Positions 1-25,100 of a stretch of DNA of 64,000 nucleotides are shown in pieces. Positions within the stretch are counted from its first letter, which is position 1, and each line of letters starts with the position of its first letter. The DNA comes from Tubulanus polymorphus (lineage: Eukaryota > Animalia > Nemertea). The notes beneath the pieces are model-generated. The model was not told the origin of the DNA. It searched no databases and worked only from the letters and a program-made list of their open reading frames with translations. The position numbers and the translations under genes are program-made. The stretch covers positions 10,424,655 to 10,488,654 of the forward strand of contig NC_134033.1 in NCBI RefSeq assembly GCF_964204645.1, given 5' to 3'.

Positions 1-1093
1 GTAATAAGTTATCTTCAGTTGTTCTAAAATCTAACCATAATGCATATTTATTACCGGTATAATAATCAATTTGATTAATGTTACAATTTTCAGATGATTT
101 CACTTTTTCATTCATAAAATGTTTTCTAATTTCTGGCCATTGATCAATCATTCTCATTCCTTGACAAAATATTTTATTCGCTATTCCTTCGATAGTTATT
201 TCTACTTTTGTTATTTCAGGATTATAATAATTATCAACATTTATTGCACCATTAGAATATGTTGCAATAGTAAAAAATATTAATATACCTTTAATAGATC
301 TTCTAGGAAAGTTAATATTCTCATTTATTATTTCATCATTTGCATTAATAGTTACAGTTTTAAATTTATCAATATAATCATATAATAATGAAAATCCTTG
401 ATTGTATTGAGTTTGAATTGTGCTAGCAATATTTTCATTAGTTATTGTGTTATATTCTAAACATATATTCGATAATTTATAACTCATATCTTTAACAACG
501 CTAGATAATACAATTTCATTTACAGGAGCAAATGTTATCTCAAATATAATATCTTCTTGAATTGCGTATTTATATAAAGGTGCATTATTATTTATCAATT
601 CAAAGTCTAATGGAATTTTATATTTGCTTCCATAAATCTTTTTAATCAAATTATCTGTGGCACGAGTTACTACTGCATTATTGGCTTCAGATCTTAATTT
701 ATTATGGTTTTCCGATTGGATGCCTTGAAATATCATATTATTTCTATTTTCTTTAGTTAACCATAAATCTTTATAATGCATAAATAAATTATAATCATCT
801 AATGAGAAAACTGTTTCCGGACCAATCTTTATTGTTAACTTTTTAATCAAATATCTTCCAACATTATCAACAACATAATTGTTATCATGGCCAGTTACTT
901 TTATATCGGCTGATAAATAAATACTGTTTGGAACATAAAAAGTATTTTGTGTTAATCGAGGGATTCTAACATATAAAGTTTCATCGGGATTAATATTTGA
1001 AGGGTTATGAGTAATTATATGATGTGATCTTTCTGCTTTAATAGCATTAGATATTCTATGATTCTTCGAAGGACTTATATAACTCCCACTCAT
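1..1093 (-). CDS. Major capsid protein (double jelly-roll), 3'-truncated by the window edge
   Basis: Manual translation from ATG at 1093 is open to base 1: MSGSYISPSKNHRISNAIKAERSHHIITHNPSNINPDETLYVRIP...NVGRYLIKKLTIKIG...YYNPEITKVEITIEGIANKIF...KYALWLDFRTTEDN. Beta-rich, with motifs I recognise from Polinton-like MCPs, and preceded by the element's TAAATG motif. Confidence 0.75.
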   Translation of the reverse strand, partial: MSGSYISPSKNHRISNAIKAERSHHIITHNPSNINPDETLYVRIPRLTQNTFYVPNSIYLSADIKVTGHDNNYVVDNVGRYLIKKLTIKIGPETVFSLDDYNLFMHYKDLWLTKENRNNMIFQGIQSENHNKLRSEANNAVVTRATDNLIKKIYGSKYKIPLDFELINNNAPLYKYAIQEDIIFEITFAPVNEIVLSSVVKDMSYKLSNICLEYNTITNENIASTIQTQYNQGFSLLYDYIDKFKTVTINANDEIINENINFPRRSIKGILIFFTIATYSNGAINVDNYYNPEITKVEITIEGIANKIFCQGMRMIDQWPEIRKHFMNEKVKSSENCNINQIDYYTGNKYALWLDFRTTEDNLL

Positions 1094-1137
1094 TTATTTA
1101 ACAAAAAAATTAATTATTTATTTTTTGATATCATGGT

Positions 1138-1932
1138 TTACTTGATATTTTTTGATATCATATTTACTAAACCAAAAATAATAGCACTTACAACTGTAAT
1201 TAAAAATAAAATAATATGTTCAGCAGCAAAGTTAATAATGTTTCCTGCAGATTTCAATATAAAACCAACAATTGAAGCAATAACTCCTGGTAAAGCTGCA
1301 GCAGATTTCTTTGATAGTTCCCATAAATATTTTGCTAATTTCTTTAAACCATCCTTAACTTTATCTTGTATAGAATTATTACCTGGAGGTTTATCTGGTT
1401 TGTTAGGAGTGGGAGTAGGAGTAGATTTCAAAGCATTTGATATAGCTAAACCTATTGTTGTAAATAACATAGTAACAGATGTTAGAATTGAAAGAATTGT
1501 TATTCCTTCTAATTTAAATAATAATTTTATTCTGTCTTTCAATGATATTTTAGAATCTGGTTTTATCAACAAATCTTTAAAAATAACTTTTAATCTATTA
1601 ATATTATAATCATATGATTTTAACAATAATTTAATTTCTTCTTTTTGTAATTCTATGTTATATTCTAAATCATCTTTTTCTTTTTCTAAACGTAATTCTT
1701 TTTGCCTATATTCTATTTCATCAATTACTTGATGATCTAAATCAGACTTTAATTGTTCTATTTCTTTATTTTTATCAGTTAATTCTTTTTCTAAAGTTCT
1801 AATTTTAAAATCTCTTATACTTTTATTATGTGCAATTTTATCAGATGCAAGTCTTATACTAATAATTTCTCTAATTGCTTTATCAGAAAATATATTTAAA
1901 TCTTCTAATTGTTGATTTGTCAAGTAATCCAT
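1138..1932 (-). CDS. Coiled-coil plus multi-transmembrane viral protein (probably the C-terminal part of a frameshifted gene)
   Basis: 264 aa with a long heptad-rich region, then hydrophobic segments (GITILSILTSVTMLFTTIGLAI; LPGVIASIVGFIL; IILFLITVVSAIIFGLV). Lacks the TAAATG start motif. Confidence 0.7.
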   Translation of the reverse strand: MDYLTNQQLEDLNIFSDKAIREIISIRLASDKIAHNKSIRDFKIRTLEKELTDKNKEIEQLKSDLDHQVIDEIEYRQKELRLEKEKDDLEYNIELQKEEIKLLLKSYDYNINRLKVIFKDLLIKPDSKISLKDRIKLLFKLEGITILSILTSVTMLFTTIGLAISNALKSTPTPTPNKPDKPPGNNSIQDKVKDGLKKLAKYLWELSKKSAAALPGVIASIVGFILKSAGNIINFAAEHIILFLITVVSAIIFGLVNMISKNIK

Positions 1933-2569
1933 TTGGTAAAAGTTTTACAGTTTGAACTTTATTTGATTTAAGTTTACTATTTTTGGAAGTTATATTCTGT
2001 TCAGAAGTTGTTTCTGTTTCTAAATTTTCATTAATTATCTTAAAAAATTTAGCATTTCTTTGTTTAAATTCTTTTATATTATAATCTCTTTCTTCTTGTG
2101 TAACATCAATTATAGCATCATTTTTTATTTTCTTAATTCTAGATTGTTCTAATAAATTAAAAGTTGATTGTGTTATTATTTTATCACTATTTTTAAGATT
2201 TGAAATCTTAAAATAATAGTCGCCTTTCAATTTCCAATAATATTCACCATTTAAAAATTTTAAATCTTCTACTAAATGATCCATACCTTTATTTGTTATA
2301 TTGAAACCAGATTTTTCTAATATTGGTTTAAATTTATGAATAATTTCATTATAATTGTATTCTTTTTCTGTTATTTCTGGTACTTCATTTTCAATACTTA
2401 TCTTTGAACGTGCTTTGTCAATAAATTGGGGTGTAGTTAAATTAGAATTATGTGCTGATTCATTACCATCATTAAAACTTGTTTCATCAAAATCAGGTGG
2501 TTGTTCATCAGTTATACCAGGTTCATCAAAAGGATCCATTCCAATATCTTCTACACCTTCTACATCCAT
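1883..2569 (-). CDS. Viral hypothetical protein with acidic N-terminus (probably the N-terminal part of the same gene)
   Basis: 228-aa ORF with the TAAATG start motif; overlaps the downstream ORF by 50 nt in another frame. Confidence 0.65.
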   Translation of the reverse strand: MDVEGVEDIGMDPFDEPGITDEQPPDFDETSFNDGNESAHNSNLTTPQFIDKARSKISIENEVPEITEKEYNYNEIIHKFKPILEKSGFNITNKGMDHLVEDLKFLNGEYYWKLKGDYYFKISNLKNSDKIITQSTFNLLEQSRIKKIKNDAIIDVTQEERDYNIKEFKQRNAKFFKIINENLETETTSEQNITSKNSKLKSNKVQTVKLLPNGLLDKSTIRRFKYIF

Positions 2570-2585
2570 TTATATAATAAAAAAA

Positions 2586-3887
2586 TTAAAATTTAAAATA
2601 TAATATTCCTCCGATTACAATTCCTATACAAGTTATAGCTAATTTAGTATTTTCATGGGATTTATTATCATCATTTAGTTTAATTATATCATGTTGAATA
2701 TTATCAGTTCTATTATTTTCTGATGTATTATAATCTTTTATTTTAGAATCATTATTTAATTTAATATTCTTAGTTTTAGTTTCTGTTGATTGAATGTGTT
2801 TTTTATTTTTTTCACCTTCCATTAAACTTGGAGCAGTAATAATCTTTTTATTTATATCATTCAATCCAAATGAATTATTTATTGTTGCAGTTTTAATTAG
2901 ATTATTATAACCAATTATATTTCCCATCTTCAATACTAAATCATTAGAAATAATTAATAGATTAGGGCCTATACAATAATTAAGTCTTACATGAGATTTA
3001 TCTAAATAATTTTGATATCTTATAATGTTTTCTGGAATCGATCTATTTTTATCATTATGAATTGAATCTTCAAATAAAACTTTAAACTGTTTCTGCGCAT
3101 CGAATGAAGTGTTATCATTTCCAATTATTGGGGATCTTGTTTCAACTTGAGCGCCTAAAATACATATCAAATAAATTCTAATAGATTGATTTATTCTTTG
3201 TATACCTGATTTTGTAAAACCTTCACTATTTTCTAAAATGAAATTAACCCAACCATTATTATTATCAATTTTATAATTATGATAAGCTGAAATTCTATGC
3301 ATATAATCAATTCTTTTTATTTCATACTCTTCACCAACACCTTGCAATTTACCATGCGCTCTAAAATCGGAATTAATATTTATATTAAATTCATTACATA
3401 TTTTATAAAACTTGGATATATTAATATTATTATCCAATTCTTTAAAATATTTAGACCCAGGTAAAGGACATTCTAATTCATTTAATATTATTCTGATTTG
3501 AAAATATGTGTGAAATCTAAATATTGTGTGAATTAATTTTAAATCAGAATACTTCAAATTTTTATCTAAGTTATTTAAATGATCATTCCAACTAATTCCA
3601 CATCCTGTTGTTGCACAATAAACAGCAAAATTTAATTGATTCTGCCAATATTTCATATTAGATTTTACTTTATATATATGATATTCATCTCGAGTAAAAG
3701 TAACTTCATATGTATTAAATATATTTTCCATTTTAGAAATAAAAAACTGTGATTCATTAACATAAATTTCTAAATTAGTTAATGAATTTAAAACTATATT
3801 TTTATATGTAATATTTTTCTTAAAATCTATTGCTGGAATATTATATTTAATTGATTTATTATATTGGAAAGCTTTTGGAAACCCCAT
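2586..3887 (-). CDS. Polinton-like hypothetical protein with C-terminal transmembrane anchor
   Basis: 433-aa ORF (WQNQLNFAVYCATTGCGIS, RFHTYFQIR, GIQRINQSIRIY); hydrophobic tail LAITCIGIVIGGILYF; TAAATG start motif. Confidence 0.8.
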   Translation of the reverse strand: MGFPKAFQYNKSIKYNIPAIDFKKNITYKNIVLNSLTNLEIYVNESQFFISKMENIFNTYEVTFTRDEYHIYKVKSNMKYWQNQLNFAVYCATTGCGISWNDHLNNLDKNLKYSDLKLIHTIFRFHTYFQIRIILNELECPLPGSKYFKELDNNINISKFYKICNEFNININSDFRAHGKLQGVGEEYEIKRIDYMHRISAYHNYKIDNNNGWVNFILENSEGFTKSGIQRINQSIRIYLICILGAQVETRSPIIGNDNTSFDAQKQFKVLFEDSIHNDKNRSIPENIIRYQNYLDKSHVRLNYCIGPNLLIISNDLVLKMGNIIGYNNLIKTATINNSFGLNDINKKIITAPSLMEGEKNKKHIQSTETKTKNIKLNNDSKIKDYNTSENNRTDNIQHDIIKLNDDNKSHENTKLAITCIGIVIGGILYFKF

Positions 3888-3903
3888 TTATATAACTAAA
3901 AAA

Positions 3904-4338
3904 TTAATAATTTATTAATTCTTTTAATAATTTATCTTGTTCTTCAACTGTTATATGACCATTTAAACTTATTATATAATCTAGTGTATTCTTTAATTTA
4001 TTAATTTCTTTTATATTAGTTTTGATTTTTTCTTTATTACTTTTTATATTTAATTTTGAACTTATACCAGTTAAAACACTTGAACTTAATCCTAATACAC
4101 CAATTGATATAGCTAAAGGTGTTAATGGGCTGAATATAGCTAGAAATGTTATTACAGAACTAATTGTAACCGAACCACTTATAATCAAATAATATATAAT
4201 TTTACTTTTTAGATATTTTTTCTTTTTTATCTTTAAGTCACTTTCAAATTCTAATATTTGTTTTTCTAAATATGTTTTTAATTTAGTTTTATTTATATCA
4301 TGAGGAATAATATCAATACTATCAACTTTATCTTCCAT
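3904..4338 (-). CDS. Small viral membrane protein (coiled coil, 2 TM, coiled coil)
   Basis: 144 aa with two hydrophobic segments; TAAATG start motif. Confidence 0.75.
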   Translation of the reverse strand: MEDKVDSIDIIPHDINKTKLKTYLEKQILEFESDLKIKKKKYLKSKIIYYLIISGSVTISSVITFLAIFSPLTPLAISIGVLGLSSSVLTGISSKLNIKSNKEKIKTNIKEINKLKNTLDYIISLNGHITVEEQDKLLKELINY

Positions 4339-4357
4339 TTATTTAGAATAAAAATTA

Positions 4358-4780
4358 CTAATTAGTAAACTTATAAGCAACAAATATAACAATAACAGTT
4401 CCACCTAAAATCCATATTATTTCATATTTCTGTTGTTCTTTACTTGGGGTATAATAATCTGATAATTTAGGTTTGTATAGATGTAATTTTTCTTTATTTG
4501 TTACTGCGTTATATAAACTCATTGCATCATCAACTGATTGAAAATCTCTATGTGAAATCTTCTGATCATATAATTCTTTATTGATGTAATCCATATAGTT
4601 TTGCCTCTTTTCTCTATATTCTTCTGCAGCTTTATTGTATTTCTCTAACGCTAAGTTATGTCTTCTTTGTTCTCCTAATGAACTATTTTTATCAATACGT
4701 TTAAATAAATAACCACCACCAGTAAATGCTAAAGCGTTAACAATTGCCGATCCTATAATAGTTATAATTGCAGAAGCCAT
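4358..4780 (-). CDS. Small viral protein with N- and C-terminal hydrophobic helices
   Basis: 140 aa (MASAIITIIGSAIVNALAFTGGGYLF...IIWILGGTVIVIFVAY); TAAATG start motif. Confidence 0.75.
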   Translation of the reverse strand: MASAIITIIGSAIVNALAFTGGGYLFKRIDKNSSLGEQRRHNLALEKYNKAAEEYREKRQNYMDYINKELYDQKISHRDFQSVDDAMSLYNAVTNKEKLHLYKPKLSDYYTPSKEQQKYEIIWILGGTVIVIFVAYKFTN

Positions 4781-4804
4781 TTATTTAACAAAAAAATTAT
4801 GCAT

Positions 4805-5026
4805 TTATATGGGAGGAATATATTTTTGTTTTTCCAAATAATCAATAGTTAAATTAGATAAAGTAACTGCTAATGTTAACTTTAAAATATCATTTATATC
4901 AAATCTATCAACATTAACACTTCCCATTTTGAATACTTTTTTTAATACCATTGAATAACCAACAGTTCCAACTGATAGTAATGAGCCATTATATAATCCA
5001 GTTATTATCCACTTATTATCACTCAT
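4805..5026 (-). CDS. Small hydrophobic viral protein
   Basis: 73 aa, packed between its neighbours; start context TAATAAATG. Confidence 0.65.
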   Translation of the reverse strand: MSDNKWIITGLYNGSLLSVGTVGYSMVLKKVFKMGSVNVDRFDINDILKLTLAVTLSNLTIDYLEKQKYIPPI

Positions 5027-5029
5027 TTA

Positions 5030-5386
5030 TTAATCAAAAAAATTACTATCATCAAAATATTTAGTTAACTTATTTATGATTAATTCAACATTTATTTCAT
5101 TACTAGTTTTATGATTATCATATATTTCAATTATTATTTTTTTAATATCATCGATGATAAAATCTTCATCTAATTCATAAAATCTTAAAGATTCTCTAAT
5201 TAAATTAGTAATGTTTTCTACATTTAAAATTTCTTTATCTATTGTTGTTTCATACTCAAATGTTGTTTCATTAGAAAATGCAATATTTTTGATATGTGTT
5301 ATTACATCATTAATGTTAAATTTCATTTCTTTCTCACGTTTAAAATCAAACCCAAAACATATACTCGGTCCAACAGTTATATTCAT
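5030..5386 (-). CDS. Viral hypothetical protein
   Basis: 118 aa; TAATTTTT..TAAATG start motif; abuts its neighbours. Confidence 0.6.
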   Translation of the reverse strand: MNITVGPSICFGFDFKREKEMKFNINDVITHIKNIAFSNETTFEYETTIDKEILNVENITNLIRESLRFYELDEDFIIDDIKKIIIEIYDNHKTSNEINVELIINKLTKYFDDSNFFD

Positions 5387-5402
5387 TTATAAAGGTGAAA
5401 AA

Positions 5403-6161
5403 TTACTCTTTACATCTTATAACTAATTCATAAATTACAGGAAAGTTATTCAAATCAATTAAATAACCATTATGATTTCTTATTTCTAATTTAAAATTAT
5501 TGAAATGTGGAATACAAGGTTTGAAATCACATTCGGTTAAATTATAATTTATTTGCGTTCCAAATTGTTTGACATTTTTTAATGGTAAAATATTTAATAA
5601 ACCAGAATTACAAATTGTATCTTTAGTTGCTTCAAATGTTTTTGTAGGATCGATTAAATTGCAATGAATATAAAAGTGTGTAAAAGGTATTATATTTGAG
5701 TTACCTTCTGCGTATGCTGTAACGGTATCTGGTGCAATTCCTAACAGTTTAGCTAAAGGTTTTCTTATTGTAAATTTAAATTGTTCGTCATTAGCTAACC
5801 TAATCTTTATTTTATTAGAACTAGCACTTTTTAAAATTCTAATACTAAATCCGGAATCACTTCCTAATTTAGCTCGAGCTTTTCTATTAATTTCTTGTGT
5901 TAATGTATCTAAATTATATAATCCTGGTTTTAAATATATAAAAAACCATTTATTCCTTTTTTTGTAAAAGATTGAAAAAATTAAATGTTCTAGACTTTTA
6001 TCCGATATATTATAAAAAGAATTACATAAACTTATATTAACTAATTTTAAATCTACACAATTCTTGAATTCTCTATCTAATTGTACTAGTAAATTATGAG
6101 ATTTATAATTTGTAAGTTTTCTAGAATCAATAAATATTCTGTATTCTTTTAATTCTACCAT
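5403..6161 (-). CDS. Minor capsid protein (penton, single jelly-roll)
   Basis: 252 aa with typical penton motifs IFIDSR, SFYNI, PGLYNL, LAKLLG, FYIHCNLI, LEIRNHNGYLIDLNN..YELVI. Confidence 0.8.
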   Translation of the reverse strand: MVELKEYRIFIDSRKLTNYKSHNLLVQLDREFKNCVDLKLVNISLCNSFYNISDKSLEHLIFSIFYKKRNKWFFIYLKPGLYNLDTLTQEINRKARAKLGSDSGFSIRILKSASSNKIKIRLANDEQFKFTIRKPLAKLLGIAPDTVTAYAEGNSNIIPFTHFYIHCNLIDPTKTFEATKDTICNSGLLNILPLKNVKQFGTQINYNLTECDFKPCIPHFNNFKLEIRNHNGYLIDLNNFPVIYELVIRCKE

Positions 6162-6229
6162 TATTTATAACATAAAAAAATTACCGCTCATCACTAAAAA
6201 TTAATTTTAATAAAATTTTTCCTAAATAA
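6162..6229. promoter_or_regulatory. Divergent viral promoter region (penton / VLTF3-like)
   Basis: 68-bp intergenic region carrying AATTTTT..TAAAT(A)ATG-type motifs in both directions, plus CTCATCAC. Confidence 0.55.
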
Positions 6230-7528
6230 ATGGATGAGAAGATAGCATGCGAAATTTGTGGTGAACTTCTAAGAAAAAGTAATAAGGCTCGACATATGAA
6301 AAAACATGATGAAAATTATAAACCCCCTAAAATAAACTGTCCAAAATGTAATAAATTATTCTTAAGAAATTATGTTAAAAAACATTCAGAGAAGTGTAGA
6401 ATTAATGGCGCAACGGCTAATGTTGATAGTAATTCTGCTGAAGTTGAACCTGAAGTTATTTGGAAAAGACCTTTCTTATTCTATGATAAGGATAATGTAA
6501 AAGATCATTTCTGTGAGCCTTGTCAAGTAAAATATAGCCCTGAAAATATAGAAGATTGGGAGAATCATCAATTTCGTAAAGCACATATAGATAAAATTTC
6601 TAATAAATTTGAAACTGAATTCAATGAAAGAAAAAATAATTTATTAGAAAAAATAAAATATGAGAAAACGTTACCAGATAATAAAGAAACAGTTGAAAAG
6701 TTAGAAAAACAATATAATGAATTAACAAGAAAAACATATTATTGTAAATATTGTAAATTGATTATTACAACAAGTAATTCAAATCTACATAATAGAACAA
6801 TAAAACATAAAGAAAACGTAAGAAAATACCAAGAGCTTAATGAAGATCTATTACCAAGAAATTATAAACAAAAATGCCCACAATGTAGTTATGCGACCTT
6901 AAGGCAAGAAGGTACTGTGTTATTTTGTGTTGAATGTGGATGGCAAAAGAATTTATGGGGTGAAGAAAAAACTAGAGATTTTCTCATAGAACCAAAATTA
7001 AATTATCTAGATGAAATTTTTAAAATATTTTCTATAGAAGATCATACACCAGAATATATGCAATGGCTTGAAAAAATGAAAATAATAGAAAATAAAAATG
7101 GTGAAATAACTAAAAAAGATATTATAAAAACAATTATTCCACCAACATTTAACACAAAACAAAAGAAAATGTATTTATATTTATTATTTAACGATTATTA
7201 TGAAAAACCTAAATTAACAGAAGAAGATATGGATAATATAAAAAAAATATTTAAACAAATATTAATGTATCATTTGGAAAATAGAATAACAGATTCAATA
7301 AATTATGAATTCTTTTTAAATAAGATTGTAAATTATTTAAACCTAGATATTATAATTCCATTTGATGAATTAACAAACAAAAAGAAACAAAGAGAGCGAG
7401 ATGAAATGTGGAACAAGATAGAACTTTATTTAAATGAGAAAAATGGAATGGAAGAAGAACCTGAACAATTAAATGAAAATGAAGAAGCCAATAGTGATTT
7501 CGAGTTTGATGATATAGATCCATTTTAA
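6230..7528 (+). CDS. Multi-zinc-finger protein with C-terminal poxvirus VLTF3 (A2)-like late transcription factor domain
   Basis: Four C2H2/C2HC fingers, a zinc ribbon CPQC..CVECG, then PKLTEEDMDNIKKIFKQI..INYEFFLNKIVNYL..KKKQRERDEMWNKI, which matches the VLTF3 C-terminal pattern by eye. Confidence 0.7.
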   Translation: MDEKIACEICGELLRKSNKARHMKKHDENYKPPKINCPKCNKLFLRNYVKKHSEKCRINGATANVDSNSAEVEPEVIWKRPFLFYDKDNVKDHFCEPCQVKYSPENIEDWENHQFRKAHIDKISNKFETEFNERKNNLLEKIKYEKTLPDNKETVEKLEKQYNELTRKTYYCKYCKLIITTSNSNLHNRTIKHKENVRKYQELNEDLLPRNYKQKCPQCSYATLRQEGTVLFCVECGWQKNLWGEEKTRDFLIEPKLNYLDEIFKIFSIEDHTPEYMQWLEKMKIIENKNGEITKKDIIKTIIPPTFNTKQKKMYLYLLFNDYYEKPKLTEEDMDNIKKIFKQILMYHLENRITDSINYEFFLNKIVNYLNLDIIIPFDELTNKKKQRERDEMWNKIELYLNEKNGMEEEPEQLNENEEANSDFEFDDIDPF

Positions 7529-10500
7529 TAACCATAAGGTAATGTTTTTATACCATCATCTGAAATATGCCTTTTATCATCAAATGGATTTAAACTAGTT
7601 TTTTCAACTTCATTAATGTACATCTCATGATCTTCTGATCTTAAACAATTCATCTTGTGTTTCATTACAATTGATTTATATAAACACTTTATATAATCTT
7701 GAAATTCTATATGTTTATCAACCACATGTTTTGTTATTCCTTTTAACTTTTTAGCTTCATGATCTTTTGTTCTGTAACTATACATTTTACTTCTTATCCC
7801 AACAAATTCAATCATTTCATCACCTCCTAATTCATCTTTAAATTTACCAGGAATCTTTTTATTATCATTGCTAAATAGTTCATGATCTTTAGGATAATTG
7901 CTAAAATCAAAATGATGTTTTAATGTTTTTAAGTCTTTTGTTATGTCATTTGTCTTGATTTTTAGTATGTAACTGTCAGTATTTTTTGGATTAATGGGAA
8001 CCCAGAATTGAATGTTCCATCATCTGTTGATAAATCATAAACATAGTCAGTTGGGTTATATATTTCAAATAAATCTTTAACTTCTTCTGTTAATTCTTTT
8101 TCTACATGCCTTAAATTAAAACAATTTGGTTTAGATTTAATTAATTCTATATTCATATTAAATCCTAATGAACTGCATAACACATTTAACCCACTTATTG
8201 CACATTTTCCTTTCTGTGCAAAGGTTATCGTTTTATCCTTTATAAATTTTTTAGTACCATCGGCTGCGTAGAACCCAATGAAGAACCATTTTCTAAGATT
8301 ATATTCTGAATTTAATATATAATCTGGTACTATTTTTTCTTTAGTTGAAGTATTACTTTTCACTATTGTATGAATATAGAATTCATCATTATATTTTATA
8401 GCAAAATCTTTAGGATTATTTACAAGTATTCTATAAACCGCGGATGATTTCATAACATCCATGATTCTAAATGTTTTATGTGAATAAACTTCTTCACAGA
8501 ATTTCTTAATTCTTTCTAATAATTTTAAGTCTTGATTGCATAAATACCAACAATATTTATTACCCCAAACATATTTATACACACCTGCTGAACCATCACC
8601 CATGAAAAATCCTTTGATAAAATATTCTTTTTCTTCCAATGTTTCGGGTTCTATATTATAAATATTATCAATTATTTCATCAAATGACATATGATTCATT
8701 CTTGGGAAAAATCTTTTATGTAATAATTCATCTCCAATTTTTATATCAGTTGGTTTTATTTCATCACCATTTCGTTTAATTAAACTGTGGTCTTCAGTAA
8801 CATCTACAAATCCTAATTTAGTTCTAACTCTATAGATTTTCTTATTTGTTTTATGTCTAATAATATTCTTTAATTTTTTCCATCCATTTCTTGTCCAAAC
8901 ATCTATTAAACCATTTATTTGTATTAGTTCTTTTTCACCATATGAAATATAAGATTTATTTTGATTAGGAATTATTTCTGAAATTCTTCTAATTAATATT
9001 TGGTTATTGTATTTTAATAATATTGGGGTGTCAGCTGTTACAGAATCGAAGTATAGAATTTCTATATGTTTTTCCCCAAACAATGGTTGTAATACATTGT
9101 AATAAAAATCATACATTAATAATTTTGATATTTCTAAAACTGTTGAACCAATGAAAATGGGTTTATTAAATTTCATTGACGTTCTTTTTAATTTTACTGC
9201 TGTTAAATAATCTTCAAATCTTTTATTTCCTAAATGTCTAGGACTTGATTGTAGGTGTCTCAATCGTTCAGAATTATTTACTAATTCAATATCATTTCTA
9301 TTTCTAATATTTTCACATGTTTTACCATAAAAACTATTGTTCATTAATTTGAAGAAATCTTTTTCAAAATCTGTTTTTGATATGGTTCTCTGTTGAGTAT
9401 TGAAATCTATATATTTTTCTAACCACTTTGATTGATTAAATTCAATATATCTATGTACTTTCTTTAATTTCATTCCTTGTTTTAGATAAAATTTTAACAT
9501 TCTATAATGAACAATATAATTGTATTTATTATTTTGAGTAAGTATTAATTTTTCTGTAAAAACATGATCTTTCGGTTTTATTTTCTTCTGGTATTCACTT
9601 AAATAACTATCATCTACAGTTAAATGTTCTGGGCAATAAGGTAAGTTTCTTGTTTTAAACTTTATGTTATCAGGATATTCTAAATCAACTACAAAGAAAT
9701 AACCAATTGGTGCTTCATCTTCTAAACTCATAATTGCGCTTTCCCAATTAGTTTTATCATCATTTTCAACTTCTGTTAATATAAAATTTTTATATGGTTG
9801 AGGTTGCATCATTGCCCAACCATATAAATCATTGGCGTCAATATATAATAATTTATATTCATCATTTGCTTTAAAATACCTATCTCCCATAACACCACTA
9901 ATTCCACCTCTAATTGATTTTTCAAATAATAAAACCATATCTGGTTCTTTTAATAAATCTAATTCTACATTTGTATATTTTAAACCACATTGCCAGGTTA
10001 AACCAGGACTTGAATAACAATAACAAGGATCAACATTAAAATGATTCAAATTAACTTCTCTAAATTTTTCAAATATGTCAGCCAATATCATAACATCTGA
10101 TTTTAAATATAAATCAACTAATTCGCCATGATTTTTCATCTTAAAATGGTTCCAAATATTTAATGTTCTATTAAACACTTCGTCTTTCACATACTCCTCT
10201 TTTAATTTATCATAAAATTGATCTTTTAATAATTCTGTTACATTAAAATCATCATGTGTTTTATAAAATGAATAAGGAATTGCGCCTTTATATCTCAATA
10301 ATTTAAAATCTTGTTCATTTGGATAATAATATCGAGTTATAACAAAATCATTATCAACTAAACTTTTTGATAAATTATCTAATGAACTTGCTAGAAATCT
10401 ATAAGAATCTAAAAATCTAATGCAACCAAATTGAAATGAAATATAATTTTCAGATGTTTTAGCTAATAGTTTAAAATCATATTTTCTTACATTTGCTTCA

Positions 10501-12587
10501 TTCATAGCATTATATTCTTCTATTTCTTGATTAATTGCACCCAATTTTCCTGATAATTGTTTTATAAATAGATGGGTATCATAGCCTGATAAATTATGAA
10601 ATAATATTGGTACGAAATTAACTTTCTTAGCTTGTAAATTGCAATCTTCATGAGCAGCTCCACGATATTTTGAATTCAAATGATCATGATCTCTAACTCT
10701 TTTATCAAATGAATAAAAACGTTTTTCACAATAACAACAATGAGTTGCATAATTAAAATCAATTTCATCTTCTTTTGTCATAACTATTCTTTTATTTTTG
10801 TTTAATAATTTTGTAAAATCACTTTCTAATTCAATCATTTTATCACAAAAATCATTAACTACATTTTCACCTCTAAAAGAAATATATTGACTTTCATATA
10901 ATTCGGGATAATTTGATTTGATGTAAATTCCATAAGCAGCAGCTCTTTGATGAACTTTTTTAATTGTATTTATAATTGGCGGGTCTTGTATTGTGTCTTC
11001 ATTTAATTCATTTCCTTTATCCATTGATTTTAATAATTGCTTTTTGTTATATATTTCTTTTCTATCTTGATCAGTTAATTCTTTATTCAACGATTCAAAA
11101 TCCCCATAAATTACAAATGGAACAATATTTTTAAATTTATGATTAGTAAATTTCAATTTATAATCTTTTTCTGTTGGCATTATTAATTTACAAAAATCTT
11201 TATTATCACATAATTCTTTATGTTTTAATAATGTATTCTCAGTCATAAATTTGGATAAACATTTTCTACATAGATAAATTTTATTATGATGATCACTTTC
11301 TGTTCTAAAGAATAAATCAATTTGTTTTAACCACATATAATGTTCATTTTCATCTTTTTTGTAATATAACAAATCTATAGCATTTTCATCATCATAATAT
11401 TCTGTTAAATATAAAGCTTCCAATGTATAATCTTTAATATTTTCACCTTTTGTCTTTGGTAATTGCATTAATTCGAATACATTTATTTTTAAATTATTAA
11501 CTTTTTCTATTTTAGGAATCATTTTTATAGTTACTGGATATTGATCAATTTTATATAATGTTTCATATTTCCGATAATCTGTTATTCTACAAACATTTTC
11601 CTGTGTTGGATGTAAACAACTAATAATTGACCATAGAAAACATTTATTATCTTCATTTTGAACATTTATTACTGCTTTTGTTGTAAACGGTAATTTGATA
11701 TAACTTGATGCTTTCATATCCTTTTCTGTTGTAAAGTTTGAATCATTTTTAAACATTTTATTACTTTTTGATGTTTTATTCCTTTTTGTATTATAAACAT
11801 TTAAATCTAAATATATAATTTCATTCAATGTTAAGCCAGAACCCTCAAAATATCTTTCTTCAATATGACGTTTAAATTCATTTAATATTTTTTCTAACTT
11901 CTCTTTTATTTGTGTTTTTGAAATTATTTCTTCAGAGTGTGTTTGAATATTATAATCCATTTTTTCTTCTGACTTTATAAAACTTACTTTCCCAGAGATA
12001 CTAATTTTTGGATATTCAACATCTGTTATCAAATCTAGTATTTTTTCTATTATTTCATTAAATTTACTATAATCTTCTATTGTTGTACCTTTAAAAAATC
12101 TAAATATAATAGCTGCAGGACCAATTTTACTATGTAATGTTTCTAAGATTTCAATTGTATCTTTTATTTCTAGTGAATCAATATAATTTCTAATATTTTC
12201 CATGTAAGGTTTATTTGAAATGGATTTAGTTTTTGAAGTTGATTCTTTTACTTGTTGAGGTTTATCATCAAAATAATCTATTCCTAAAACATTATTTCTC
12301 AAATTTTGATGGTGTTTTTCTGTTTCGAGATGTTTATTATAATTCCTTTTTGTTATAAATTCATCACAAACTTCACATTTTATTTCATCCACATTCATAT
12401 TTTCTAATCGTTCTTTTCTTTCAATGGAATTTTCTGGAGTTTCAAAATCTATAACATTTTTTATATGATTTGAAGATTTTTCATGTTTAGATTTATTAGA
12501 TTTATCGATGTATTTTTTACAATATTGACAATAATATTGATTTTTATTGATATTATTGTTTTCTAGTTGGTGTTCATTCTCCCCCAT
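7525..12587 (-). CDS. Protein-primed DNA polymerase B, intein-containing, with a 1-nt frameshift at ~7982-7987
   Basis: ExoI YGDFES, ExoII FHNLSGYD, ExoIII YLKSDV, motif A YIDANDLYG, motif B KLMNNSFYGK. Motif C is split as YFD|intein|TDS. The C-extein TDSYILKIKT..PGKFKDE..EFVGIRSKMY..KLKGI..FDDKR..TLPYGY* (7980-7525) is in the shifted frame and includes ORF 7525..7815. Confidence 0.95.
7981..9044 (-). mobile_element. Intein with LAGLIDADG homing endonuclease (355 aa if one A is restored)
   Basis: Block A SVTADTPILL; block B VTEDHSL; block C FIKGFFMGDGS; block E FFIGFYAADGT; block F YVYDLST; block G LIQK(N)/T. Confidence 0.93.
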
Positions 12588-12674
12588 TTATTAGGAAAAA
12601 AAATTACTTGTGGTGATGAGTGTTAGGAAAAAAATTACTTGTGGTGATGAGTGGTGTCTCGTACTTCGTACTCT
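12588..12674 (-). repeat. Subterminal 31-32 bp direct repeat and putative Polinton terminus
   Basis: ttaggaaaaaaa(a)ttacttgtggtgatgagtg occurs twice (12591-12653), followed by gtgtctcgtacttcgtactct; composition changes beyond this point. Confidence 0.55.
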
Positions 12675-13266: not shown

Positions 13267-16200
13267 ATGGAGATTTTATATTTCAGTACAAATTTGTTAC
13301 TTTTCTTTGCGTTAGTTTTCGTATCAACGAAAATCGTTTCGGCGCAGTTCCCATTAGGTAAGTGGCGATCGCACGGAGACTATTTGGCCCGGGCTTAATT
13401 GGCACAGAGAGGGCTCGAGCCAAATTTGGCCCGTGTCACTCACTCGATACTAAACAATGCTCAAGCAAAGCGAAGTGAGTCAATTCCGGAACCTGTTGCA
13501 ATTCAAACGCAATCATCTTGTCCAGTGCTAAAATTTGGAAATGATTCACTTCGCTTTGTTCGAGCATTTTTTAGTATCGATAATTGAGCGATTTGCGTGT
13601 GAGCGCGCTCTCTGTTTAGGCACGGGTCAAATCGGGCCTGATCGGTGCCAATTCGGCCCCGGCAGAGTCCCTTTTATATTATTACATTAACTAACAATCC
13701 AATTACGATAATGATCAAAATAACAATACGATAATGTCACATCCCCGAAATTTTAGCTAAATTTTTGCTAAATTCTTTACCACGTACCAGTTTTGAACTT
13801 CAACTTTTGATTCTTAATGAGTTATGTTGATGTTGTATTTAATGTTTAACAGTTCCAGAGTTAGACAGAGCATCAACATTAGAAAATTGCCCATCTTCAA
13901 TCCTGTCCTGGTTTTACGCCAAAAAGGGTTACGCGATTCATCTACCGAGAAATTCCAACAGTTGTAATTCAACAGATGATCAGACACCAAACAACCCCAT
14001 CAGGCCCATTTGTAACAATCTTTAACCTGCTGTAACAAACTTTTTGACACACCTACTGCTAACCCCATACGCGTTAGGTAATCTTTCAACAGCCCCTGTT
14101 ACAAAAATATACTAGAGTTATACCCGTGGAAACCACGGGTGATTTCCTTTGGCCCAGAATTTCAAACTGTTCATTATATTGGCAACGGAATTTATTCAGG
14201 CCATTTAAAAATCTAATGTGTCCATGCCCGTGGAGACCGCATGAGCTATGGTGACCTGTGCGATGTAAACCGGGAACTATCCGGGGTGAACAAAATATGT
14301 GCGCAGCTACGCGGGACTCGAACTCTTGGGCCATTGCGACTGCACAATGGAGTTGCTCTGTAAAATCGTTTTGATGCAGTGAGAGTCTATGATTAGAATT
14401 CCTGCGAAAATTGTGTCTGCCTCCGTCCGGGGACATTATATATGGTCTCGAAACGAGAAGAAAAACTAAATACATATAATACGTAATACAATGATTGACT
14501 ACCACACACAAAATTTCAAAGACAAATTCTTCTCCACGTCGACACTATTTGGTACATAGCTTCGTATCAATATACAGATAATCATTGCGCAGTCCAAGAC
14601 TTAAATTCGTATGCGTTTGTTCAGGTTTGTATGGTGAGTGGTCGGAATGGAGTAGTTGTAGTGTAGACTGCGGACTCGGAAAAAAAGAACGAACGTGTAA
14701 CGATGAAGAGGGTCGACCGTGTGAAGAGGGCGGACAACCACGTGAAAAAGCTACAGATTACTGTTTTGAAATGTGTGAAGGAGGCAAGTCTTTTAGAGCT
14801 AGTGACGCTGGGGTACCAGGGTCGGGTTACCACGCCTTCAATTTCCATATTTCATATTAGAGTCAACCTTTCTCATTACGTAGTTTATCAATTTTAAGTA
14901 AAATCTGTACGATAAATTGATCGAGAAGGCCAATCTCAAATCTATCTGATGACTCGTTTGATGATTTTTGGATTGGCAGCCTAAAGCCGCGATCACACGG
15001 AGACGATTTGGCCCGGGCCAAATTTGGCCCATGCCTAATTAGAATACGAGTTAACAATTAAACCACTCACTCGATCCTTAGTGCCAAAACAGCGTGCCAA
15101 TTCAGATGCGTTTATACCGCACGACGTTTGCTCTGAAGATACCGCGCATTTCATTGGCTAGATAGACTGGTGGGCGCTGAACGTTAACCTGTCCACCCAA
15201 GAAATCGTGGGCGATTATAATAGAACAATGAAGGGTTTGCGGCCAGGGTTTGTATTGGCGTGAGCTCGTCGGTAATCAAACCTTGGCAAACGAGGATGTA
15301 CTGCTATAGAACACTGTAGCAAGGCAAATTTCATCCAGTTTTTAACTGCTAATTCATTCCGAAAACTTAAATCTGTTGGAAGATAATAAGATAAAAACCC
15401 ACTACGTACAAATTAAGAGTATATCAAAATCGAGAATCTATTCATTCAAAAAAGACATGACGTTTCGATCTCACCCTAAAGATTAACGTCAGGTGTGAGA
15501 TTATGGAGCTAGAATACTCCGAGGCGACGATACTGAGTAAAATATAGCTAACCCATCAACGATGTTCTATTTTTTTAATATATCAAAGTATTTTGTTAAC
15601 ACGTGCGTGTTCTTGATTATCTGTCATTTAAGTGTAGTACACACACTTATAAAGAAGAATAAACAATACGGTATATTTTTCTCTGCTGATGACAATATAT
15701 ATTCAATATATATCAACCCACCATCCACCAATGATCCTCCCAACTACGATGACTATACTTCACTAACTTTCCTTCACTTTACTCTATTTGATAAACTTTT
15801 GGTCTTAGTACAAAGACAATTTGAGTGATTTATACGGTACATAGAAATAAATACATTATACGACGTAGAGTAGGTAGATACCTATTTAAATATTAATTTA
15901 TATGCGAGCTATTTTTAGGGAATCAAGTGAAAATCCCGATAATTCTACCAATGAAAATACACAGTTTGCGAAGTTCGGTTCTGCCTTTGGTTTGCATTAA
16001 TGATTTATGTTTGAAAAGGTTGGGGTTCGTATAAGATCTTCCGTCCAGATATAATACCCTACTATCATTTGAATGTGTACAGTTGCAGGCGCGGATCTGA
16101 TTTTTTCCAGGAGGGGTTCATAAAGAATGTTAATATTAAACAACCGACTAAAATATCTGATAGGGGCAATATAGGGGCATATTGTTTGGCATATAAGATG

Positions 16201-17879: not shown

Positions 17880-19720
17880 TTTTAGAAAACGAACAGTTTT
17901 ATAAATATTTGGGTTGCAAAAATATTTTGTGGGATGTGTCTCGTTCTTTTGTCCCTACACAAGGGGCAGATTACTAGTACATAATATTCGTTTTCATCAA
18001 CATTTAGATCACAGTATTGGCATATTCTTTCATGATAGGGCAAGACAGGACGTAGCAAACGACAAGATTGAACACGAAAATTATGATTGGAGCACCTAAA
18101 TCTGGCCACTGATATCCGGATGTGTTTTCTTAAATTTGGATACGGCTCGTACATAATTGATGATTTAAAACTTCGACAAAATTTGGCTTAAATTGGAATT
18201 ATTTAACCAGTTATGCCTGGGTAAATTGATCTTTGAGTCGCTGCTCAATAGAGCCGAAAAACCATTTTTCATTTTCTATACTCTGGTCATGCCATATCTG
18301 TCCATAGCCTAGGTTATTTAATAGATCGCGTGCGTACCCGTGGGTGACTGTATATATCAGCAAGCATAACTTCATATAACTTTCGCGTAAGCTTGTTTGG
18401 CTTGGATTTTAGTACCTTGGCCAATACTTTAGAATCTCCACCTTATTCTGGATAATTAAGGGGAAAATACCGAGCTCACCATAGACAAAACGGTCAGGGG
18501 TAGTTTGTTTTAACCCTATGATAGATTTGTAAAACTTCATCACAATTCTCTCTAACTTCAATTGTTTTTTAAACCCCATATTTCACGCCTATAACTCAGG
18601 ACTGATACAACTAGACTATTGAAAAATTTTAATAACAATTCCGAGTTCATGAGTGGGAAATGCTGTGAGTGCTTCAGAAAAGCATGGTAAGCTGCACCTC
18701 CTTTTTCGGCTTAAGTGTCAACAGCAGCATTGTACTTTCCATTAAAATTAAACATAAGACCTAAATACTTGAACCTATTAACGCATTCAATGGCACGCCC
18801 GTTTATGTAGAAAATTGGGACCCTTACTGGCAGTTTTACGGAAAATGATGATTTTAGTCTCATCATAATTTATCTGCTTTCACAATAGTCAGATACATTA
18901 TTAAGTGCTACCTGCAGACTTGCCTCTGTTTCGCCTAGTATGACAGTATCGTCTGCGTAGAGAAGTATCATTACTTTTAACAAACCTAAATCAACACCGT
19001 CATAGTTATTTGATCTAATACATTCCTCCATATCATTTATAAATAGAGTAAATAATAAAGGCGAGAGACATTCGCCTTGGCGAACTCCTTTGTTACATTG
19101 AAAATGATCAGAGTACGAGTTATTCGACTTAACACATGATTTAGCAAAGGAATACATAGATTTGATGATACGTAGACGCTTTCCCTCAATTACATTAGAC
19201 ACGAGTTGTTGGAGCAGTTTTTTTCGGTCGACAAGGTCAGATGCTTTTGAGAAATCCAGAAAGGCTGCAAAAAGCTTCCGATGTTTAATATAGACAATAT
19301 GGTTTATAACAGCATTTAGTACAAAAAATCTGCCGAAAACCGGCCTGTGATTCACCTATGATAGAAACCACACCATGACGATAATCTGTCATTCATGGTT
19401 GATGGATGGTAGAGAATAGTTTTCCAAAAACAGATAAAATAGATATTCCCCTATAATTATTGGCTACGTTTCGTGGCCCACTTTAATGTATGGGCACTAT
19501 ATATCTTTGACTCCATGCCTCCGGGTAAAAGCCGCTATCTGAAATAATATTGAATAAAATTGTTATTTGCTGAATAATCGTTTGCCCTCCGGCAATGAAA
19601 ACTTCTCCTTTTAGTCCATCGACCCCAGCAGATTTATTTCTCTTCAACATCTTCATGGCACGTAAGACTTCATTTTGCCCAATAGCCATATCTAGAGCGT
19701 GATTAATTTCTGGTTCTTCG
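17880..19720 (-). pseudogene. Decayed non-LTR retrotransposon (LINE) ORF2 fragment
   Basis: LKRNKSAGVDG, FLDFSKA, GVRQGECLSPLLF, LLYADD and a C-terminal RICQYC..CPL; many stops and frameshifts. Confidence 0.85.
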
Positions 19721-22138: not shown

Positions 22139-25100
22139 TTAGTTATTGGCGATTTTCTCATTGATCCAATCAACGAATTTGATGACGTTTGTATAAACTC
22201 CTGGTTTACCCCGCTGGGCGCAACCGTAGCCCCAGGAGACGACCCCCTTCAGCTCATAGCGTCCGTTCACTTCGCACACGTATGGTCCGCCGCTATCACC
22301 CTACAAAATCATTAACACGAAAAACTACGTGATCGTCTGCTAAAATCGGTTAAAAACAAGGGAACTAATTTTCGAATTTATTGGACGCCTTGTAAAATGA
22401 CATATATAAATATAACACAAAATATAATTTCAACCAAAATTCATTCCTGGAAATATATGAGAATTCATTAAATAGAAAATGAAATTTGATTAATTAGAAA
22501 ATAAACGCCAAAATATGTATGCATATTTTTCGACCTCGATATTAATGTCGGCACACCGACGGACACACTTCACCTCAGAAAACGCATAGTAGTTACTATT
22601 GTATTAAATGGATTATCATTGTGTTTTACGGCGGCAAAAATAGAGCAGCACCAGCTTCACTCACCTGACAGGAATCGTGACCTCCAGCTACATAACCTCC
22701 ACATATCATATATTCAGTGATACGTCCGTAGTTGTACCTGTTGCATTTATCTCTGGCTATAACTGGTAATAAAGCCTGTTTCAAATTACCGTGATTACTC
22801 GTTCCTAGAAAATTAGACAGTTTATAAATAAAATCGGTTAAGATTATTGAAAATTTTTTGCTTTATGGATGTGATACAGTTTGATATTTAGCAAAATTAT
22901 TGAGAATTTAGCTTTCATCAAATACAGTTTGATATTCAACCAAAATTATTGAGTATCGAGCTTCCATCAAATGAAGTTTCACATTTAACTGAAATTTTGA
23001 GTATTGATTCCGAAACATCATGTATTGTAATTTTAGATTTTGATTGCTGATGAATACATTTCGTTTTCATGTTGAGGGTTTTACCTTTCGTAGATCCCCA
23101 GCCGGTAGCGTAACATTTCTGTCCGTCGTACACGTCCGACGATGGTAAACAAGCAGGCCAAACTCGATCAGTCAGTTTTGCCGGCCGTTCCAGTTTCAAT
23201 AAAGTGATGTCTCGATTCGTTCGACTTTTGTCGTAAAGTTCATGGGCGAAAACCTTGGCCACTTGAATTACTTGTCTGTCCGATTCGCGGCGTGTATGCA
23301 TGCCTAAACCGACTTGATAGTATTTCGGGTTAGCGCCGCTAAAATGTAAGAATTCATGAAATAACAACAGGGATAGAAAAGCTACCCTTATAGGTCATCC
23401 AAAAACGATGTCGTGTTTCCCATTGCAATTGTTTCTCAAAGGCGACGAGGGAGGCATATTATTATAATAAACCTTGAAATGAAATATTTAGAGGAGGATT
23501 AAAGGAGATCGTCAGCGAGTCAGCTTTTTATTTTTGTTAACCCACTAAGGTATAAAATGCAGTTAAGATGGTATGAAGGATCGAAGTCACCACATACCAG
23601 AACAGATGGTAGTTGATATTTTAGTAAAGTAAAGTTTGCAGTTTCCAGCCCGATAAACACGTATTTCGATCACCTGATTTATTTGATAACATTTTCTCGT
23701 ATCTCCAAGCAAAATAAGGAAATAGATGATACGAACACAAATTTATTGATACGGGCGAGAGTATTCTATTAACTAGCATGAATTCTCACACTAAGACGCG
23801 GTAGTACTCATTGTATTTTTTTTACCCGATTTTCGTCAGTGGTTTTTCCGACGCACGCAGTGATGAGAAACACACGGTTTCATTTTTGAATGGCCTAATT
23901 TCACGATTAATTCGTTTAGTGCGTATTTATTTTTGCTAATTTTGTCGCTATGAAAATGTGTTTAATGTGGCGAAAAGTAATGTTTCGAGAAGGTATAAAA
24001 ATACCCTCGGTCCCCTTTCTAGCCCCATCTCTCACCTCCTCTCTCTCTCTTCCTCGTATCTCCTTCTCTTTCCCTACCCTGCCATCCTCATCTTTATTGT
24101 CCTCTTTCCCCTCCCTCTCTACGTCTCTATTTTCCTTCCTTCTCTCACTATGCCTCTCTCCCCCAGACACTAGTACAACTTACATGCCGATGCAATGAGC
24201 AGCGGTCACTACCCATTGAGGATGAATGAGAGTTCCTCCACAACCTACTCCATACATACGAACCATCCAAGGCCAACTGCCCGGTCGAGCTTCCCTGCCA
24301 CCGACAATTCGAAATCCGTCTAAACCATTTCCTAGAAACGGTTTGATCTTCTGCACGCCGCATTTACCGTTCCCGGGAATAATCGGTTCGTTCGTTATCG
24401 GAGCAGGAGTTGTAGCTGATAATAGAGAGAGGTAGATTTGAGTTTTTTAGACTCAAAAATGTATACAAATTTAAAATTTACTAAAATAGATTGTACCCGT
24501 TCTATGAATACAACTCGTTGTATGTATTTCATTAAACTTGACGCTGATTTCTGCAGAGAGAGTTCGTGCTTTATTCTAATTCTCGATTTTAATTCTTGAG
24601 AGAATTTCATTTCAATTTGAATCCTTGAAATCTATTTGATTTAATTCAATTCCATTAGAAGATCGCACAATAGACATGATACCAGTGCCTTGCAATTAGT
24701 AAAGGTTCCTATTATTTCACTTACTTAGGTCCGGTCCTCCTACAAACTGGTATTTGATACGGAAGCCCTTTGCGTTGGAACGTTTGGCTGTTACTGCCAG
24801 GTAAACGTCTCTGGCGTCTTTGATGCGCATTGTCGGTCCTTTATCGCCACAATAATACATATATCGGGACCAGGAACCTGAAAGCTTCTTATAGGTTATT
24901 TTCAATACATCATCGTTCATACGGCAACTGAAACAAAATAACAATGTTTATATCAATAAAATAAGTTGGATGAGTTGTGTTAAACCTAAATTAGTTCCTT
25001 TCCTTTTAATCAGAAATGCTTCCAAATTTAATTAAATTAGTTCATCAACTTTGAACTGGATTTTTCCACCTCCCAATCCATATATTATCATAACACCCAC

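Follow-up and report, generated by a model that had tools for sequence, protein, structure and literature searches.

A 22-nucleotide start cassette resembling poxvirus late promoters precedes the genes of an AT-rich Maverick-type element in the genome of Tubulanus polymorphus

The DNA considered here is a stretch of 64,000 nucleotides (hereafter, the window) from the genome of the nemertean Tubulanus polymorphus (contig NC_134033.1 of assembly GCF_964204645.1, positions 10,424,655 to 10,488,654 of the forward strand). From position 1 to about 12,650 the window is occupied by a low-GC block (23% GC, that is 77% A+T), which extends past the left end of the window and is followed by a flank of 34-50% GC. 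On sequence grounds, the block is part of an integrated, virus-like element of the Polinton/Maverick type, and the genes it carries share a start cassette of 22 nt, TAATTTTT-N8-TAAATG, that ends on the start codon. Assignment to the Polinton/Maverick type is based on the PolB and capsid genes described below and on L001, an 11.5-kb metagenome contig that is syntenic with the window and encodes a capsid protein 76% identical to that of the element: past the capsid gene, L001 continues with an rve integrase bearing a chromodomain, a Pox_A32-type ATPase and a deoxynucleoside kinase. Integrase and ATPase are also present in a second syntenic relative, L002; in the window copy the part matching the integrase falls left of the window, and no ATPase gene was found within the window. 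No terminal inverted repeat was found in L001, a contig that is possibly incomplete, and the size of the element was estimated at roughly 15-20 kb. The deoxynucleoside kinase gene of L001 (10340-10981; PF01712, E 2e-31) is unusual cargo for a Maverick-type element.

The visible part of the element amounts to ten genes once broken open reading frames (ORFs) are merged; eight ORFs of the block are small or medium-sized. The major capsid protein gene (2..1093, minus strand) continues beyond the window, which holds the N-terminal 364 of about 415 amino acids. Its product has 410 homologues in the database searched, a distant one in a bivalve assembly. The predicted model of a full-length homologue, P0001, reached a predicted local distance difference test (pLDDT) value of 86.6 and shows a double jelly roll, which Foldseek matched to the major capsid proteins of iridovirus, Paramecium bursaria chlorella virus 1 (PBCV-1), Sputnik and mavirus (E 4e-15 to 3e-10). 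A PDB sequence search with the capsid profile gave no match; the similarity is visible by fold search. Upstream of the capsid gene lie a split gene (1138..2569, minus strand) and six tightly packed minus-strand genes (2586..6161) in the same order as in L001: ORFs 2586-3887, 3904-4338, 4358-4780, 4805-5026, 5030-5386 and 5403-6161. The last of these is the first gene of the minus-strand run and forms a divergent pair with ORF 6230-7528 (plus strand), which encodes an orphan zinc-finger protein of 432 amino acids with a zf-U1 domain (Pfam). The remaining gene (7525..12587, minus strand) encodes a protein-primed DNA polymerase B (PolB; PF03175, E 7e-20). An Rfam scan of the whole window gave 0 matches.

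Two of these genes are broken. ORFs 1883-2569 (the front half) and 1138-1932 overlap by 50 nt and together correspond to one ORF of 485 amino acids in L001, whose product has a coiled coil and C-terminal membrane segments. PolB, for its part, carries an intein with a break in the C-terminal region, after which the polymerase continues in another frame; ORF 7525-7815 is its C-terminal end. The intein, with a LAGLIDADG homing-endonuclease domain (7962-8900), is inserted in the catalytic DTD motif of PolB and is absent from the PolB of five relatives (L022, L037, L062, L015 and L030); PolB relatives without the intein align straight across the frame break. Reads of the species show length variation near this break, so that other copies of the element may differ there. 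The two broken genes account for the only cassette-less ORFs of the element, which start at 1932 and 7815: because both are parts of frame-broken genes, these starts are not gene starts, and the cassette is thus found on all ten genes (eight exact copies and two variants).

All eight exact matches to TAATTTTT-N8-TAAATG in the window lie on the minus strand and finish at the ATG of an ORF, with a spacer of exactly 8 nt between the two words in every case. They belong to the capsid gene (1091..1112, TAATTTTTTTGTTAAATAAATG), to the front half of the split gene (2567..2588), to ORFs 2586-3887 (3885..3906), 3904-4338 (4336..4357), 4358-4780 (4778..4799), 4805-5026 (5024..5045) and 5030-5386 (5384..5405), and to PolB, which has no gene upstream (12585..12606). 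The two variants precede the divergent pair. That of ORF 5403-6161 (6159..6183, minus strand, TAATTTTTTTATGTTATAAATAATG) reads TAATTTTTTT-N6-TATAAATA-ATG, and that of ORF 6230-7528 (6213..6232, plus strand) reads AAATTTTT-N6-TAAATG, a 6-nt spacing that recurs in the L001 homologue of this gene. In general terms, a core TAATTTTT(T0-3) spans positions -19 to -12/-9 and is followed by 5-8 nt and then by TAAAT.

The ten upstream strings listed in an earlier note on this DNA, made by reading the sequence, were all present, apart from small miscounts of T. For the gene starting at 5026 only taaTAAATG had been noted; that string is there, and the full motif was found as well. The same note had stated that the leading TAA of the cassette is often the stop codon of the upstream gene, which is only roughly right. 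Such is the case in three of the eight exact cassettes, those of ORFs 1883-2569, 2586-3887 and 5030-5386, whose TAA is the stop of ORFs 2586-3887, 3904-4338 and 5403-6161, respectively; in addition, the cassette of ORF 3904-4338 adjoins the TAG stop of ORF 4358-4780. In the cassette of ORF 4805-5026, the upstream ORF 5030-5386 runs through the T-run and ends 6 nt before the ATG. Packing is tight throughout, with intergenic spacers of only about 17-45 nt. The cassette follows gene starts rather than gene ends: the three genes without a same-strand upstream gene (PolB, 5403-6161 and 6230-7528) all have it, while the two convergent gene ends at 7525-7535 lack it.

The claim that the shared motif is not random was borne out by shuffling. 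In 1000 dinucleotide-preserving shuffles of the 23% GC element, the exact cassette occurred 0.01 times on average and once at most, and none of the shuffles reached the eight copies observed. Shuffles of the whole window (n=100) contained a mean of 0.07 matches and again never reached eight (0/100), and the other 51 kb of the window had no match. A looser pattern, AATTTTT-N6-12-TAAAT, was found 11 times against an expectation of 2.3, a number reached in 0/1000 shuffles. In contrast, TAATTTTT alone is not enriched (16 observed, 14.1 expected); hence, the signal resides in the combination of words and in their placement. An unbiased search for repeats also returned the start cassette as the top direct-repeat families.

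Conservation in related elements, which the earlier note had left to be checked, was found as well. Metagenome contigs were scanned with an alignment, and 206 of the 384 stretches matched encode a relative of the capsid protein; the best 80 of those were kept, and 38 of these 80, picked by capsid identity and length, were analyzed. ORFs were considered if they had at least 60 amino acids and at least 30 nt of upstream sequence, and were dropped if more than 30% of their length was overlapped by a longer ORF. In 14 contigs with a capsid protein at least 49% identical (L001-L013 and L018; 20-44% GC), TAAATG was present at 51 of 62 starts (82%), and a T-run of five or more at positions -27 to -8 in 22 of the 62. 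Among internal ATGs of this close group, only 38/1132 (3.4%) were preceded by TAA. TAAATG starts were also seen in close-group contigs of 36-44% GC. About 90% of the starts have T at position -3, A and T are about equally common at -5, and the frequency of T in the relatives peaks at -12.

A weight matrix was then built from positions -25 to -1 of the 62 close-group starts, leaving out both the ATG and the sequence of the window. When both strands of the element were scored (25,270 positions), the eight best hits coincided exactly with eight gene starts, every one with an ATG behind it. The start of ORF 6230-7528 ranked first and that of the capsid gene second; the two starts beyond the top eight were the variant at 6161 (rank 13, with a 3-nt offset) and PolB (rank 21).

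More distant relatives behave differently. TAAATG was found at 1 of 30 starts in seven AT-rich distant contigs and at 2 of 201 starts in 17 GC-rich ones, with T-runs at 5/30 and 5/201, respectively. These clades still have the core genes o2586, o1138, o4358 and o4805; because they share genes while lacking the motif, the cassette is a lineage-specific feature laid on a largely shared gene set. Two IMG/VR scans, with the capsid protein or with the capsid alignment, detected no relatives.

Other start contexts were observed among the distant contigs. One GC-rich clade (L019, L038, L039, L045 and L063) has a conserved word of its own, CTATCTAAAACGTGA, which lies about 15-30 nt before the start codon of the capsid gene. 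A second clade (L022, L027, L029, L037, L074 and L025) shares GTTCAATAC(C)ATTACC-ATG at the capsid start, and the AT-rich distant contigs L030, L035, L053 and L033 have the context T(T/A)AAAA-ATG. Each lineage thus seems to have its own start context. In L002, two divergent gene starts at 5549-5567 are 19 nt apart, each with ATAAATG, forming a near-palindromic bidirectional region, CATTTATTTGTTTTAAAAATAAATG.

What does the cassette do? Its sequence and its position make it likely that it functions as a promoter or initiator. A more specific reading, which we put forward tentatively and with somewhat less than even confidence, is that each gene has a promoter of the poxvirus late type, read by a polymerase of the kind found in nucleocytoplasmic large DNA viruses (NCLDVs) and belonging to a helper virus. 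The T-rich block from -19 to about -10 would be the core element and TAAAT, at -3 to +2, the initiator. Transcripts would begin inside TAAAT, would therefore lack a templated 5' untranslated region (UTR), and would acquire a short 5' poly(A) leader through slippage of the polymerase, the way post-replicative transcripts of poxviruses do. The most likely reader would be an NCLDV-type (poxvirus-like) RNA polymerase together with its factors, provided by a large DNA virus that infects the same cell; the integrated copies would remain silent until the helper arrives, which amounts to a virophage-like lifestyle. The T-run may additionally end the upstream transcript; the sequence T5NT is present in six of the eight exact cassettes.

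The proposal of an NCLDV-type reader builds on a layout shared with poxvirus late promoters, as the earlier note had perceived and as described in PMC5294985, and on the poor fit of the cassette to the geometry of RNA polymerase II, which shows on three counts. Position -3 is T; spacers of about 17-45 nt are too short for both a TATA box at -30 and a UTR; and the TATA-like word lies on the ATG itself, so that a polymerase II start would fall within the ORF. The contrast in base composition (23% versus 34-50% GC) and the use of a single motif for all genes were also counted in favor of a helper. A reading of TAAATG as a translation context was considered and rejected, since T at -3 is the opposite of the Kozak purine.

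The viral polymerase and the late factors VLTF-1/2/3, if used, could come only from a helper: neither a Pox_VLTF3 nor an RNA polymerase domain was found by Pfam in any ORF of the window or of L001 and L002. The earlier note had suggested that the element might encode a VLTF3-like factor of its own, an idea that found no support. ORF 6230-7528 matches only a U1-type zinc finger, and Pox_VLTF3 is absent even at E<=10 (Pfam). No homologue of this ORF was found in a search of 5.8 billion proteins, and only its first 56 amino acids recur in L001. Its single-sequence AlphaFold model is unusable (pLDDT 39.9), and the best score in the ESM Atlas, 0.76, is a lead only. The U1-type finger of this ORF (6711-6757) resembles the N-terminal finger of PolB (12516-12562) even at the DNA level, where the two form a 47-nt inverted repeat that is 72% complementary; the resemblance suggests a duplicated finger module.

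Several observations weigh against dependence on a helper, and some of them speak for a different reader. As far as a literature search shows, the element has no known helper virus, and virophages are not known to have been described from animals. In the visible part of the element, as in L001 and L002, no gene for a transcription factor or a polymerase was recognised. A scan of IMG/VR with TAATTTTT-N8-TAAATG returned at least 120 single, chance-like matches; among the matches listed there was no candidate helper and no contig with several cassettes. The proposed role of the T-run as a terminator lacks separate support: compared with codon shuffles, coding sequence is as poor in A-runs as it is in T-runs, so that there is no strand-specific terminator signature. 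Lastly, the element has a nuclear phase, being integrated in roughly 10-20 genomic copies and having an rve integrase-chromodomain protein in a syntenic relative, and its distant relatives share the core genes without sharing the motif, so that they presumably use the RNA polymerase II of the host.

The last two facts also favor the view that host RNA polymerase II reads the cassette as a compact promoter, and that the element is an autonomous nuclear virus of the Maverick/adintovirus kind with no helper at all. TATAAAT or AATAAAT could simply bind the host TATA-binding protein (TBP), or this protein or another factor of host or element might act on TATAAAT/AATAAAT plus the T-run, with transcription starting at or just upstream of the cassette. 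Support comes from animal adintoviruses, for which expression and virion formation have been reported without mention of a helper (PMC8502044), and from work on the targeting of vaccinia late promoter elements by TBP that is cited in PMC5294985. We regard this explanation as rather unlikely. A TATA-like element on the ATG would place the start about 30 nt inside the ORF, and the next methionine of the capsid protein is far downstream; there is no space for a UTR, and -3 is T. Besides, polymerase II promoters do not resemble a single 22-nt signal that is repeated unchanged, with its spacing fixed at 8 nt, on every gene, and 23% GC is far from the composition of the host. If the promoter were nonetheless read by the host, it would still be an unusually compact promoter, of 22 nt, for a eukaryotic virus.

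The cassette might alternatively work at the RNA level on polycistronic transcripts, as a poly(A) signal (AATAAA) or U-run that forms the 3' end of the upstream message, and/or by stop-restart translation. The genes do lie in one long same-strand run, AATAAA is contained in five of the eight exact cassettes, an upstream stop codon lies inside or beside the cassette in five of eight, and transcripts of African swine fever virus end at T-runs (PMC7163114). However, the cassette is present on three genes without an upstream cistron and missing after two last genes, there is no AG acceptor for trans-splicing, and T-runs show no strand-specific depletion in coding sequence; signalling of this kind is therefore improbable. 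Its simplest form, a poly(A) signal and nothing else, was rejected, both because the cassette precedes genes that have no upstream cistron and because A and T are about equally common at -5, so that half of the sites read TATAAA and would make poor poly(A) signals. Slightly less probable still is that the cassette is the promoter of transcription machinery encoded by the element itself beyond the window, as in the cytoplasmic linear plasmids of yeast with protein-primed PolB (pPolB). The left part of the element does lie outside the window, and the yeast virus-like elements are AT-rich pPolB replicons with short per-gene promoters, an RNA polymerase of their own and 5' poly(A) leaders (PMC6831550, PMC6211774). 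Against this, L001 (11.5 kb) and L002 contain, past the capsid gene, the integrase, the ATPase, the deoxynucleoside kinase and small ORFs of up to about 290-410 amino acids, none of them with a polymerase or capping-enzyme domain, and contigs of close relatives reach about 17 kb at most. As for a functionless by-product of AT-richness, the 77% A+T of the element and the chance-level frequency of TAATTTTT alone could be adduced in its favor; we consider it refuted by the eight exact copies where 0.01 are expected (0/1000 shuffles), by their location, all on the coding strand at start codons, and by conservation in 14 related contigs cross-validated by the weight matrix.

Reading by a helper, if correct, invites a bolder proposal, which at present seems to us rather unlikely: the AT-rich Maverick clade would be a virophage of animals, with genes that answer only to the late transcription apparatus of a helper, either a poxvirus-like one (entomopox-like, for instance) or another NCLDV, and with its 10-20 copies silent until infection. 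The integrated copies might then possibly serve as an inducible defence against giant viruses, like mavirus in Cafeteria. This would be the first virophage-helper system in Metazoa. Either way, the cassette offers a handle on two open questions, namely how animal Mavericks are transcribed and whether animals harbour virophage-like parasites of, or defences against, poxvirus-like viruses, and it is relevant to the evolutionary connection that has been proposed between Polintons and NCLDVs.

The multiplicity of the element was seen in raw DNA reads with the same species label. Read depth was 40-490 per strand on the element and 10-25 on unique flank, and element reads were distributed over three classes of likeness: 3,314 at 99% or more, 19,387 at 95-99% and 27,293 at 90-95%. 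The number of genomic copies, which are diverged, is estimated at roughly 10-20. Depth was lowest at 1603-2670; for this reason, the split gene (1138-2569) is the most variable among copies. The exact right end of the element is uncertain because depth remains high as far as about 12,800 and loose ends occur at 12622, 12765 and 12797. Upstream of PolB, a 31-nt spaced unit with 26 identical nt occurs twice in tandem (12597..12653). This unit repeats the T-run core of the PolB cassette (repeat family D19), and its copy number differs among genomic copies, a joint from 12665 to 12634 being present in 93 reads.

The flank has features of its own. A repeat at 13437-15043, with many read joints (to opposite strands or back by about 1.6 kb) and peaks of depth, is probably another mobile element with inverted ends beside the insertion. 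Remains of non-LTR (long terminal repeat) retrotransposons with RVT_1, Exo_endo_phos_2 and GDSL esterase domains lie at 18870-19355 and 25921-29577, and an exon with a trypsin domain at 22936-23394; both fit an animal host. An SR/SPG-rich ORF (34765-35955) is located within an island of 50% GC. Long tandem arrays with several frames open occupy 46789-49323 and 59779-61722, one unit containing GYLTTVFYGVSYHG.

How does the cassette compare with known systems? The poxvirus late promoter itself and promoter mimicry by virophages are already known. In a literature search that covered sources other than subscription journals and supplements, no publication turned up that connects TAAATG or poxvirus late promoters with Polintons, Mavericks or adintoviruses. 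In strong late promoters of vaccinia and cowpox viruses, such as P11 and ATI, a T-run is followed by about 8 nt and then by TAAATG. The general scheme comprises a T-rich core of roughly 20 bp, a spacer of 5-7 bp and TAAAT(G/A) at the start, with no 5' UTR (PMC5294985), and the TAAAT initiator is tied to poly(A) leaders made by slippage (PMC7163114). The cassette has the same tripartite layout and dimensions, the same TAAATG over the start codon and, to judge from its sequence, the same absence of a templated 5' UTR. It differs in its shorter core, sharply defined as TAATTTTT, and in its fixed 8-nt spacer, and its carrier is an element of the Polinton/Maverick type with pPolB and integrase. Unlike in poxviruses, one signal is used on all genes, DNA polymerase included, which would leave the element without temporal gene classes, and no late transcription factor genes were found among the ORFs of the window, L001 and L002.

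Asfarviruses, whose transcripts terminate at poly(T), 5-8 or more T that follow the stop codon directly (PMC7163114), provide a parallel for the T-run: six of the eight exact cassettes contain T5NT or a longer run. However, the T-run found here also precedes genes that have no upstream gene, and it is not avoided in a strand-specific manner within genes. The yeast plasmids pGKL1/2 resemble the element in being AT-rich pPolB replicons with very short per-gene promoters near the ATG; they lack capsid and integrase, and their polymerase and capping machinery was not seen here. Their promoter word, the upstream conserved sequence (UCS), is also different. Messengers of the pGKL1/2 type carry non-templated 5' poly(A) leaders (PMC6831550), and RNA polymerase and capping enzyme are encoded by the yeast linear elements themselves (PMC6211774).

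In gene content the closest counterparts are Mavericks/Polintons and adintoviruses, which have pPolB, a double jelly-roll capsid protein, an A32-like ATPase and an rve integrase-chromodomain protein and are integrated in multiple copies. Core genes are also found in GC-rich Maverick-type relatives, some on contigs of megabase size and one in the bivalve assembly. In contrast to those, the closest relatives within this clade have 20-27% GC, while the rest have 29-44%; no adenain-like protease domain was recognised by Pfam among the ORFs scanned (window, L001 and L002); and the per-gene TAAATG cassette, present in this clade, is lacking in the distant ones (1/30 and 2/201 starts). The adintovirus paper does not describe promoters (PMC8502044).

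The comparison that matters most for the helper reading is with virophages and polinton-like viruses. These relatives of Polintons copy the promoter of their helper, as do Sputnik (mimivirus late promoter), mavirus (the late TCTA promoter of Cafeteria roenbergensis virus, CroV) and the Phaeocystis globosa virus virophage, PgVV (the early promoter AAAATTGA of Phaeocystis globosa virus, PgV), and integrated mavirus is reactivated by its giant virus (bioRxiv 10.1101/2022.07.28.501842). Like the element, they are small, AT-rich, Polinton-related double-stranded DNAs that encode a capsid protein, an ATPase, pPolB and, in mavirus, an rve integrase, that bear one short motif before most or all of their genes and that integrate into host genomes. 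They differ in that their hosts are protists, whereas the host is here an animal, and in that the motif of the element resembles a poxvirus promoter rather than a mimivirid one; dependence on a helper is, in the present case, proposed from that resemblance. Promoter mimicry is the clearest genomic signature of the dependence of a virophage on a giant virus, and it has so far been seen only in protists.

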